Shown here piece after piece: positions 730 through 6,071 of a stretch of 6,071 nucleotides of DNA. How positions within the stretch are numbered: position 1 is the first letter of the stretch; every line of letters begins with the position of its first letter. Source of the stretch: Escherichia phage ID32. The notes beneath the pieces were generated by a model. That model was not told the DNA's origin and searched no databases. It saw only the letters and a list, made by a program, of their open reading frames with translations. The position numbers and the translations under genes were made by a program. The stretch lies in the sequence record NC_007819.1. One strand, written 5' to 3'.

Positions 730-759
730 GCCTTCAAAGTATTACTTTGAGGGCTTTTT
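730..759 (+). promoter_or_regulatory. Stem-loop plus T5 run in the gene-A leader; stem overlaps the gene-A SD (GAGG 749-752)
   Basis: GCCTTCAAAG (730-739) pairs with CTTTGAGGGC (745-754): 10 bp with one G-U, 5-nt loop, followed by TTTTT (755-759). Lies between the P_A -10 and the A start codon at 763. Confidence 0.5.
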
Positions 760-762
760 CCT

Positions 763-3063: not shown

Positions 3064-3077
3064 GGGGCTTCGGCCCC
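3064..3077 (+). terminator. GGGGC-UUCG-GCCCC tetraloop hairpin in the J-F spacer (probable leaky terminator or mRNA-stabilising hairpin)
   Basis: Perfect 5-bp GC stem with a UUCG loop; followed by the F SD (AAGGA 3081-3085) and a T run. Confidence 0.55.
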
Positions 3078-3092
3078 TATAAGGATTTTTAA

Positions 3093-4376
3093 ATGTCAAA
3101 TGTACAGACTTCCGCTGAACGTATCCCTCATGACCTGTCTCATCTGGTTTTTGATGCAGGCAAAATTGGTCGTTTAAAAGTTGTTTCTTGGACTCCTGTT
3201 GTTGCAGGTGATTCTTTTGAGCTTGATATGATTGGCGCTATTCGCCTTTCTCCGCTTCGTCGTGGCCTTGCTGTTGACTCTCGCGTTGACCTGTTCACGT
3301 TTTATGTCCCTCATCGTCATGTATATGGTGAGCAGTGGATTGAGTTTATGAAGCAAGGTGTTGATGCTGCTCCTTTGGCCCCTGTTCAGTGCTCTCGTGG
3401 TTGGGATAGTGCTCAGTATCTTGCTACTATTCCGTCTAGTAACTTAAAGGTTCCTAAGTTTCTTCATCAAGGTTACCTGAACATTTACAATAACTACTTT
3501 AAAGCTCCGTGGATGGATGACCTGACTTATGCCAACCCGTCCAATATGGAAGGTGAAGATGTTCGTTTTGGTGTTCGTGCATGTAACTTGAAAACTATTT
3601 GGACCGCTCCGCTTCCTCCGGATACTGAAACCTCTCATTCTATGGAGACTGAAACCAACTCCATTGATATTATGGGTTTGCAGGCCGCTTATGCTCAATT
3701 ACATACTGAGCAGGAGCGTGATTACTTCATGACTCGTTATCGTGATATTGTTAACGAATTTGGTGGTAGCACTTCTTATGATGCGGATAATCGTCCTTTG
3801 CTTGTTATGCACTCTGAGTTCTGGGCCTCAGGCTATGACGTCGACGGCACCGACCAAAGTTCTCTTGGTCAGTTCTCCGGTCGTGTACAGCAGACCTTTA
3901 AGCATTCAGTACCGCGATTCTTCTGCCCTGAGCATGGTACTATGTTCACACTCGCATTGGTCCGCTTCCCGCCGACTCATGAAATGGAGATGCATTATTT
4001 AGTTGGTAAAGAAGATTTGACTTATACTGATTTGGCTTGTGACCCTGCTTTGATGGCTAACTTGCCTCCGCGTGAGGTTAATATGTCTCAGTTCTTCCAT
4101 TCTGGAAGTGCTAGCGCTAAGTTTAAGATCGCTGAAGGTCAGTGGTATCGTATGCAGCCTGACCGCGTTGCATTGCCGTATAACTATCTTGATGGTTTTC
4201 CGTTCTATAGTGCGATTCCGTCTAATGATATTAAACAGCGTGTTCTGGTTAATACTGATAACTACGATGAGGTTTTCCAGTCTATGCAACTTGCTCACTG
4301 GAATATGCAGACTAAGTTCAACTGCACGATTTATCGTAATATGCCGACCACTCGCGACTCTATTATGACCTCTTGA
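3093..4376 (+). CDS. F: Major capsid protein F, 427 aa
   Basis: Extensive similarity to phiX174 F (RLSPLRRGLA, FTFYVPHRHVYGEQWI, QGYLNIYNNYFKAPWM, YDADNRPLLVM, GTMFTLALVRFPP, TTRDSIMTS). Confidence 0.97.
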   Translation: MSNVQTSAERIPHDLSHLVFDAGKIGRLKVVSWTPVVAGDSFELDMIGAIRLSPLRRGLAVDSRVDLFTFYVPHRHVYGEQWIEFMKQGVDAAPLAPVQCSRGWDSAQYLATIPSSNLKVPKFLHQGYLNIYNNYFKAPWMDDLTYANPSNMEGEDVRFGVRACNLKTIWTAPLPPDTETSHSMETETNSIDIMGLQAAYAQLHTEQERDYFMTRYRDIVNEFGGSTSYDADNRPLLVMHSEFWASGYDVDGTDQSSLGQFSGRVQQTFKHSVPRFFCPEHGTMFTLALVRFPPTHEMEMHYLVGKEDLTYTDLACDPALMANLPPREVNMSQFFHSGSASAKFKIAEGQWYRMQPDRVALPYNYLDGFPFYSAIPSNDIKQRVLVNTDNYDEVFQSMQLAHWNMQTKFNCTIYRNMPTTRDSIMTS

Positions 4377-4382
4377 TTATGT

Positions 4383-4396
4383 GGGGCTTCGGCCCC
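4383..4396 (+). terminator. Second copy of the GGGGC-UUCG-GCCCC hairpin, in the F-G spacer
   Basis: Same stem-loop as at 3064-3077, again followed by AAGGATTTT and the next start codon. Confidence 0.55.
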
Positions 4397-4959: not shown

Positions 4960-4986
4960 AAGGCTGCCGCACTCCCGGTTAGATGC

Positions 4987-5063
4987 CTGCCCAGTGTAGG
5001 GCAGACCGAGCCGTACGGAGATACCCGATAAACTAGGAACGTGGAAGGCGCAAGCCGCCTTCC
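4987..5063 (+). other. Stem-loop cluster in the 134-nt G-H spacer; candidate primase-dependent complementary (-) strand origin
   Basis: CTGCCC-agtgta-GGGCAG (4987-5004), palindrome CCGTACGG (5011-5018) and GGAAGGCG-caagc-CGCCTTCC (5043-5063) read directly. I recall St-1/phiK/alpha3 minus-strand origins being mapped between G and H, but cannot confirm this. Confidence 0.45.
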
Positions 5064-5093
5064 CTCCTGCTAAGCCCAAAAGGAGTTACAGCG

Positions 5094-6071
5094 ATGTTAG
5101 GTGCCGTTGTAGGTGGTATTGCTTCAGCCTTAGCTGGTGGAGCCGCTTCTAAGCTGTTTGGTGGTAAACCTGCCGCTCAAGCCGCTACCGAGTCCTCTGG
5201 CCTTTCTAATGGTCAAGGTGTTATTGGTATGGATCAAGATGCCGGTATTCAGTCCGCTATTCAGGGCTCAAATGTCCCAAATGGTCAGATTCCTGCTCCC
5301 ACTACCACAGGCGGTGTTATGTCTGATGCTGGCAATATGATTAAGAATGCTGGTAAAGATTTGCTTGATGGTGTCATGACTGCTGGTAGTGACCGAGTTA
5401 AGCAGGCTTTGATTGATAAGTTAGGTGGCAATAATGCAAAGAGACAAGGACAAGCAACCCGTGATTACTTGGCTGCGGCCTTCCCTGAGCTCAACGCATG
5501 GGAGCGTGCTGGAGCTGGTGCTTCCGGCGCCGGTTTGGAATCTTCCAGCCAGGACCAACAGAAAGAATTAATGCGGATGCAGCTGGACAACCAGAAAGAT
5601 ATTGCGAAGATGCAGATGCAGAATAATTTGCAGATTGCAGGCATCCAGTCCGCTACTTCTCGTCAAAATACGAAGGATTCTGTTTATGCTCAGAATGAAA
5701 TGCTTCAGTACAATCAGCGTGAGTCGCAAGCGCGTGTTGAGTCCATCCTTGCCAACACTGACCTTACGGCTAAACAGGCCACCCATGAAATTATGAGAAT
5801 GGCTCTTACTCGTGCTCAGGAAACTGGTCAGCATTTGACTAACTCTCAGATTATGGCATTGGAGAAAAAGGTTTATGCAGAAATCGGAAAAATTCACCAA
5901 GATACTCAAAACGCTCGTTATGGTAGCTCTCAAGTTACTGCTGCGGCGAAAGATGTTACAAATATGATTTCTGATGCTGCTGGTGGTGTTGCCGATTGGG
6001 CTTCTCAGCAGTGGAATTCTTTCTTTAAGGATGGCAAGTCTAATGGTATTCCTTTAAATACCCGAAAATAG
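5094..6071 (+). CDS. H: Minor spike / DNA pilot protein H, 325 aa
   Basis: Gly/Ala-rich N-terminus (GGIASALAGGA.SKLFGG) and long matches to phiX174 H (TRDYLAAAFPELNAWERAGA, IAGIQSATSRQNTKD.VYAQNEML, QNARYGSS); AGGAG at 8 nt upstream; stop is the last codon of the window. Confidence 0.93.
   Translation: MLGAVVGGIASALAGGAASKLFGGKPAAQAATESSGLSNGQGVIGMDQDAGIQSAIQGSNVPNGQIPAPTTTGGVMSDAGNMIKNAGKDLLDGVMTAGSDRVKQALIDKLGGNNAKRQGQATRDYLAAAFPELNAWERAGAGASGAGLESSSQDQQKELMRMQLDNQKDIAKMQMQNNLQIAGIQSATSRQNTKDSVYAQNEMLQYNQRESQARVESILANTDLTAKQATHEIMRMALTRAQETGQHLTNSQIMALEKKVYAEIGKIHQDTQNARYGSSQVTAAAKDVTNMISDAAGGVADWASQQWNSFFKDGKSNGIPLNTRK

Follow-up and report, generated by a model that had tools for sequence, protein, structure and literature searches.

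Previous work reported that in phiX174 the terminator T_H overlaps the promoter pA and blocks about 70% of the transcriptional current, and that the pA-T_H element, across which the net change is 0.29-fold, "resets" transcription ahead of gene A (bioRxiv 10.1101/2020.03.05.979765). Saturation mutagenesis of the same phage classed 13% of the mutations in the 5' stem as detrimental versus 63% in the 3' stem, the 3' stem of T_H being the mutation-sensitive ribosome-binding site (RBS) of gene A (GGAGG, 3969-3973) (10.64898/2026.07.25.740675). The phiX174 leader reads TTGACA-N17-TTTCAT, GCCTCCAA ATC TTGGAGGC, TTTTTT, ATG, and in its RefSeq record the pA start is annotated within the 5' arm at 3962, which is the first A of AAATC and lies 7 nt past the -10 hexamer. 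The G4 leader is built of TAATAT, GCCTCC CATCAAAC GGAGGC, TTTTC and ATG, and that of alpha3 of TATATT, GCCCTCATAG TTTCA CTACGAGGGC, TTTTTCGC and ATG.

The window analysed here, 6,071 nt of Escherichia phage ID32 (NC_007819.1), is the complete circular genome of an alpha3-like microvirus (Microviridae, Bullavirinae, Alphatrevirus), which could be aligned end to end with WA13 (94.0% identity), WA45, ID21, NC35 and others and was about 84% identical to alpha3, phiK and St-1. According to the annotations of WA13, alpha3 and St-1 the gene order is A-(A*)-B-K-C-D-E-J-F-G-H, with the replication initiator gene A at 763-2247 of the + strand (open reading frame list, in agreement with the same annotations) and the end of gene H at 6071. 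The hairpin before gene A is located 730 nt beyond gene H, and three open reading frames (ORF1, ORF2 and ORF3) and a second hairpin (26-61) lie between them.

Directly before gene A we found GCCTTCAAAG (730-739), the loop TATTA, CTTTGAGGGC (745-754), TTTTT (755-759), CCT and the ATG at 763. The earlier note on this DNA had described a 10-bp stem with a 5-nt loop, and this structure is indeed present: nine of its ten pairs are Watson-Crick and the tenth, T733/G751, is a G-U wobble, and RNAfold added a U740-A744 pair, which gave 11 bp and a 3-nt loop with a dG of -15.3 kcal/mol. The + strand parts are thus a 5' arm at 730-740 and a 3' arm at 744-754 (both defined by fold and covariation), a loop at 741-743 in the minimum free energy fold (740-744 without the added pair), and the T5 run at 755-759, directly after the stem as the earlier note had stated. 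The folding energy calculation that it had recommended also came out in favour of the structure, since shuffled versions of the hairpin had a mean of -5.1 +/- 2.1 kcal/mol (z -4.9) and 0 of 200 folded as well. In a consensus scan of the whole genome the hairpin ranked first among 9 terminator-like sites, and it was within the most stable 1.5% of all 41-nt segments of the + strand. The feature is specific to the + strand, because the reverse strand folded less well (-11.7 kcal/mol, with a C.A mismatch) and had no T-run; a minus-strand role was ruled out on the same two grounds.

The gene A Shine-Dalgarno (SD) sequence GAGGG (749-753, + strand), assigned by reading the sequence and from its phiX174 counterpart GGAGG (3969-3973), is located in the 3' arm, and its GAGG core (749-752) was the sole purine-rich SD-like element within 25 nt before the ATG, again as first described. 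The opposite part of the 5' arm, GCCTTC (730-735), forms the anti-SD. The hairpin has the features expected of an intrinsic terminator, namely a stable GC-based stem-loop with a loop of 3-8 nt (11 bp, 5 GC pairs, 3-nt loop), a U-tract directly 3' of the stem on the sense strand (TTTTT, 755-759), and a position beyond the transcription unit and clear of ribosomes: the ORF3 stop (701-703) is 27 nt before the stem, and therefore a terminating ribosome would not prevent the hairpin from folding. On the other side, the U-tract has only 5 U and is then followed by CC, which counts against the terminator model. A whole-genome Rfam scan (E <= 1) found no family matches, a result that excludes known riboregulators only, because terminators are not in Rfam.

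The best sigma70-like promoter of the genome in the consensus scan was TTGACA-18-TATAGT (700-729, 11/12 matches), which we take as pA. Its -35 hexamer TTGACA (700-705, + strand) overlaps the TGA stop (701-703) of ORF3, and the last base of its -10 hexamer TATAGT (724-729, + strand) adjoins the hairpin. All alpha3-, G4- and phiX174-type genomes carried TTGACA or TTGACT at the -35 of pA but for two exceptions, a phiK-type sequence (L015, TTGGCA) and a distant relative (L025, TAGACA), and the gap between -10 and hairpin was 0-1 nt in every relative examined. By homology to the phiX174 start at 3962, pA transcripts of ID32 would start at or near A736 (+ strand), inside the 5' arm, where the spacing and the context (GCCTTC followed by AAAG) are the same as in phiX174.

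The earlier note had predicted that folding may differ between read-through RNAs and those initiated at pA, and the calculations agreed with this for the start placed by homology: opening the SD cost about 4.3 kcal/mol with a start at 736 versus 10.8-12.0 kcal/mol in read-through RNA, and in folded read-through RNAs the SD was essentially never unpaired. With a start at 734 or 735 instead, a 5' hairpin of 6-7 bp was left and the SD opening cost was 5.8-7.3 kcal/mol. The leader 736-790 was less structured than shuffled sequences (z +1.26), and likewise the phiX174 leader from 3962 (z +1.59).

The same module, with a -10 hexamer, a hairpin carrying the SD in its 3' arm, a T-run and the gene A ATG, stood before gene A in every Bullavirinae genome retrieved, including phiX174, G4, alpha3, St-1, WA13, NC28, NC29, ID62, the ID2/ID18-type, several metagenomic contigs and L025, a distant relative of 5.2 kb with an A protein 44% identical to that of ID32 (alignment A2). 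Scanning metagenomes for gene A leaders returned mostly phiX174 spike-in copies and only a handful of new variants, and the most distant matches (L101 and L102) had no usable upstream region. Among the metagenomic sequences, the 328-kb contig FUFK010037421.1 (L031-L100) consisted of dozens of tandem phiX174 genome copies and most likely reflects misassembly of the sequencing spike-in.

In the covariation alignment (A3) of 17 distinct sequences, TTT followed the stem in 17/17 and nearly all had four to six T. In-register pairing was found in 88.8% of the cells versus 34-57% when the partners were slid, changes on both sides occurred in 5/10 pairs, and 0/500 shuffles reached the observed covariation score. 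Pairs 10-28 and 11-27 showed a CG/UA swap, with GCCTCC:GGAGGC in phiX174 and G4 versus GCCCTC:GAGGGC in the alpha3 clade, and U-G intermediates of this arm swap were found in the subgroup of ID32 and in ID62; such G-U variants pair on the + strand only. Further, the upper stem, which lies outside the SD, had compensatory changes from UA to AU and from AU to GC, as well as an A.C mismatch repaired to A-U, and an A.C mismatch was present within the stem in half of the alpha3-clade sequences. The covariation amounts to few independent events, one swap between clades plus 2-3 changes inside the alpha3 clade, and this cross-genus signal gives modest support for selection on the hairpin itself, beyond the SD.

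We propose that about 65 nt before gene A would act as a composite of a sigma70 promoter pA (700-729), a terminator hairpin with its U-tract (730-759) and, within the 3' arm of that hairpin, the SD of gene A. Polymerases from upstream, whether they started at pB/pD and passed through F-G-H or came from the ORF1-3 cassette, would transcribe both arms; the hairpin would form in this read-through RNA and most polymerases would terminate at the U-tract, so that transcription would be reset before gene A. In the read-through transcripts that escape, the SD would be masked and A would be translated poorly, and the terminal hairpin probably also shields upstream messages at their 3' ends. Polymerases initiated at pA would start about 7 nt past the -10 hexamer, at A736, beyond the GCCTTC anti-SD. 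Because the start would be just past this anti-SD, pA RNA should not be able to form the hairpin; it would therefore not be terminated and its RBS would be open, and most of the A protein would come from the few transcripts that initiate at pA. The structure, statistics, conservation, covariation and promoter juxtaposition used here were computed on this genome and its relatives, and it is from the phiX174 literature and record that we took the activity as a terminator, the overlap of pA with T_H, the start site and the role of the 3' arm as RBS. By this analogy the ID32 hairpin should terminate transcription, and we infer that its read-through RNA is translationally silent. The suggestion of the earlier note that the structure could be an intrinsic terminator for read-through from upstream is accordingly favoured by orthology to phiX174 T_H as well as by computation.

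A natural exception was found in NC35 (NC_007820.1; L008/L103, 696-732), a viable natural isolate with a 29-nt deletion of the pA spacer, the -10 hexamer and the GCCCTC anti-SD arm. What is left of its leader is TTGACAG joined to ATAG and, further on, GAGGAC, TTTTT, CGT and ATG, with the SD changed to GAGGAC and without a stable fold. Phage phiX174 mutagenesis indicates that the T_H hairpin is largely dispensable in the laboratory. Since NC35 carries this deletion and mutations of the 5' stem are mostly tolerated in phiX174, viability does not depend on the hairpin, at least under laboratory conditions, which limits the proposed model. We speculate that in NC35 the loss of pA forces translation of A from read-through RNA, and hence the loss of the anti-SD arm too.

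Four other readings of the hairpin were weighed. The first is that it serves mainly as a 3'-end stabiliser, capping the upstream mRNAs (H, ORF1-3) against 3' exonucleases, with polymerase release as a secondary effect. This reading is in line with the stable, GC-closed hairpin that ends the upstream unit, and according to work of Hayashi and Hayashi in the 1980s phiX174 mRNA stability reportedly depends on terminator-region sequences, but it explains neither the invariant abutment of the -10 hexamer nor why the SD lies within the stem. As the main role we therefore regard it as rather unlikely. Termination is not excluded by it, since termination or processing must first generate the 3' end at the hairpin, and 3'-end stabilisation may be an additional function compatible with termination.

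The second reading, also raised in the earlier note, is a general translational attenuator in which the hairpin is part of the functional gene A mRNA and, by masking the SD of every A transcript, holds A protein at a low level. In its favour, any RNA with both arms has its SD fully paired, and A and A* are needed at low levels, with overexpression harmful (Logel & Jaschke). However, the -10 hexamer abuts the stem in every genome, so that transcripts with a normal start, 7 nt further on, lack the anti-SD; the phiX174 start is annotated inside the arm at 3962; the leader from 736 was unstructured; and mutations in the phiX174 5' stem are mostly tolerated. Given the predicted start at 736, the calculations placed the paired SD in read-through RNA only and not in the normally translated mRNA. 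Nothing pointed to a regulated switch either, as no leader ORF (and thus no leader peptide) was seen in 704-762, the folds contained no competing helix or alternative pairing, and Rfam gave no match. Attenuation of A mRNA in general is improbable on these grounds, and of the overall interpretation first given for this hairpin, the terminator and the start-dependent folding are supported by homology and computation, and the attenuator acting on pA mRNAs, which should lack the anti-SD arm, is not supported.

The third reading is an incidental palindrome, with the 3' arm kept as SD, the 5' arm kept as a GC-rich discriminator or initially transcribed region, and their complementarity having no function of its own. 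It draws on the six pairs nearest the U-tract, which are SD/anti-SD sequence and constrained anyway, and on the hairpin being dispensable in NC35 and mostly tolerant of mutation in phiX174. It is contradicted by the shift of the SD from GGAGG to GAGGG, which is matched in the 5' arm by a change from CCTCC to CCCTC, by the compensatory changes of the upper stem outside the SD, by the far lower pairing of slid registers and the conserved T-run, and by the strand-specific G-U pairs, and we consider it very improbable. Finally, a structure acting on viral single-stranded DNA (ssDNA) in replication, packaging or protein binding, rather than on RNA, is hardly credible: the genome is packaged as + strand ssDNA and this DNA also folds here (dG -8.6, z -6.4), but by the annotations the viral-strand origin is inside gene A and the complementary-strand origin in the F-G or G-H spacer, strong structures are located elsewhere (4966-5071), and the conserved T-run, SD and promoter contacts point to transcription and translation.

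Several other structures were observed in the genome. The J-F (3064-3077) and F-G (4383-4396) spacers had the same hairpin, GGGGCTTCGGCCCC, with a UUCG loop, each followed after 3-5 nt by TAAGGATTTT and then, 3-5 nt on, by the ATG of F or G; these look like terminators of the T_J and T_F type, each with the AAGGA SD of the next gene behind it. The G-H spacer (4966-5071), which presumably contains the primase-dependent complementary-strand origin of alpha3, St-1 and phiK, had several of the most stable local structures of the genome on both strands (-16.5 to -20.2 kcal/mol). Of all 41-nt folds on the + strand, the one at 5496-5536, inside gene H, was the most stable (-20.7 kcal/mol).

A second promoter-like, hairpin and RBS module was present at 4-69, directly after the gene H stop. 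Its parts are TTGACA (4-9), a hairpin (26-61; -18.9 kcal/mol, z -5.3) whose 3' arm carries AGGAG (53-57), a tail rich in T and, at 67, an ATG; the module was conserved in all alpha3-like genomes, and in alpha3 the tail is T6. This module (1-69) and the gene A module (697-765) have the same length of 69 nt and an ungapped identity of 35/69, the best in the genome, the next-best window having 33. Such a likeness in sequence is only suggestive of a duplication. The hairpin after gene H may be the true post-H terminator, and much of the read-through from H may already end there.

The ATG at 67 opens ORF1 (67-435, 122 aa), which is followed by ORF2 (439-525), a 28-aa hydrophobic peptide (METV[VI]GKFIALA[IV]VALMLYG...), and by ORF3 (527-703, 58 aa), whose TGA stop is inside the -35 hexamer of pA. 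All three were intact in nearly all of 13 aligned alpha3-like sequences, and the variable sites by codon position (45/32/95 in ORF1 and 13/10/30 in ORF3) were concentrated at third positions. Homologs were found only in metagenomic assemblies of alpha3-like phages, mostly contigs of about 6 kb, and the three frames are unannotated in the WA13, alpha3 and St-1 records. Pfam and PHROGs scans of ORF1-3 gave nothing significant. The predicted model of ORF1 was confident (pLDDT 90.8) and that of ORF3, with four strands plus a helix, was moderate (pLDDT 78.9); fold searches with the two models found no significant PDB match. ORF2 is possibly a small membrane protein, and its stop overlaps or abuts the ORF3 start, which is GTG in most relatives and ATG in ID32. 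In phage Lilleven, ORF3 is annotated only as a hypothetical protein. The ORF1 homolog was broken by single-base gaps, relative to all other genomes, in the alpha3 record X60322 (L002) and in St-1 (L006), where the gaps could be sequencing errors or real frameshifts.

The "upstream module" is most likely a real gene cassette, with the hairpin at 730-754 as its terminator and as a gate before gene A. We tentatively suggest, as a plausible though somewhat doubtful extension, that the abutment of the -10 hexamer and the anti-SD was selected as a "transcript-origin gate" by which read-through RNA is terminated and silent and A is translated from pA-initiated RNA alone, and that its alpha3-clade duplicate (4-69 and 700-765) may bracket the ORF1-3 cassette. 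A literature search on the alpha3-clade H-A region found nothing specific. In alpha3-like phages, what has been called "intergenic" between H and A appears to be a cassette of three genes that has a promoter-like and hairpin module of its own, and it is of more potential interest than the gene A hairpin.

Comparison with known systems placed the gene A hairpin, quite probably, as the alpha3-clade ortholog of the phiX174 pA-T_H composite, an ordinary and already described feature; the element is already known because it is mechanistically the same device as in phiX174 and G4. With phiX174 it shares the order and spacing of the parts (-35, -10, hairpin, SD in the 3' arm, T-run, ATG), the closing pairs GCC...GGC, the H-to-A interval, a pairing kept by covariation and, by homology, the start-site logic. 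The abutment of the -10 hexamer (724-729) on the first stem base (730), the gene A SD in the 3' arm with a T-run before the ATG, and the orthologous position with compensatory pairing across Bullavirinae all agreed with the phiX174 type; a position directly downstream of gene H, the source of the T_H name, was not found, a difference in position and not in mechanism. In contrast to phiX174, ID32 has about 700 nt with three conserved ORFs after H and a second hairpin module right after H; its stem is longer with an AU-rich top (10-11 bp with a G-U pair, -15.3 versus -12.8 kcal/mol); its SD is GAGGG with a spacer of 9-10 nt to the ATG (phiX174: GGAGG, 7 nt); its -10 hexamer TATAGT is near consensus (phiX174: TTTCAT); and its U-tract is T5CC (phiX174: T6). 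The G4 and ID2/ID18 leaders are similar in that the -10 hexamer is directly followed by GCCTCC...GGAGGC, a T-run and the ATG of A, whereas G4 and G4-like hairpins differ from that of ID32 in their 6-bp stem, 8-nt loop, energy of about -11.3 to -11.7 kcal/mol and position directly after gene H. A GC-closed stem-loop and a U-tract on the sense strand past a stop codon are likewise found in generic intrinsic terminators of E. coli that overlap a downstream RBS or promoter, but the ID32 stem is split by the predicted transcription start, an arrangement known in phiX174 and uncommon in general, and would act only on RNA of upstream origin. This orthology allows alpha3-like genomes to be annotated correctly with pA, a T_H-type terminator and the RBS of gene A.
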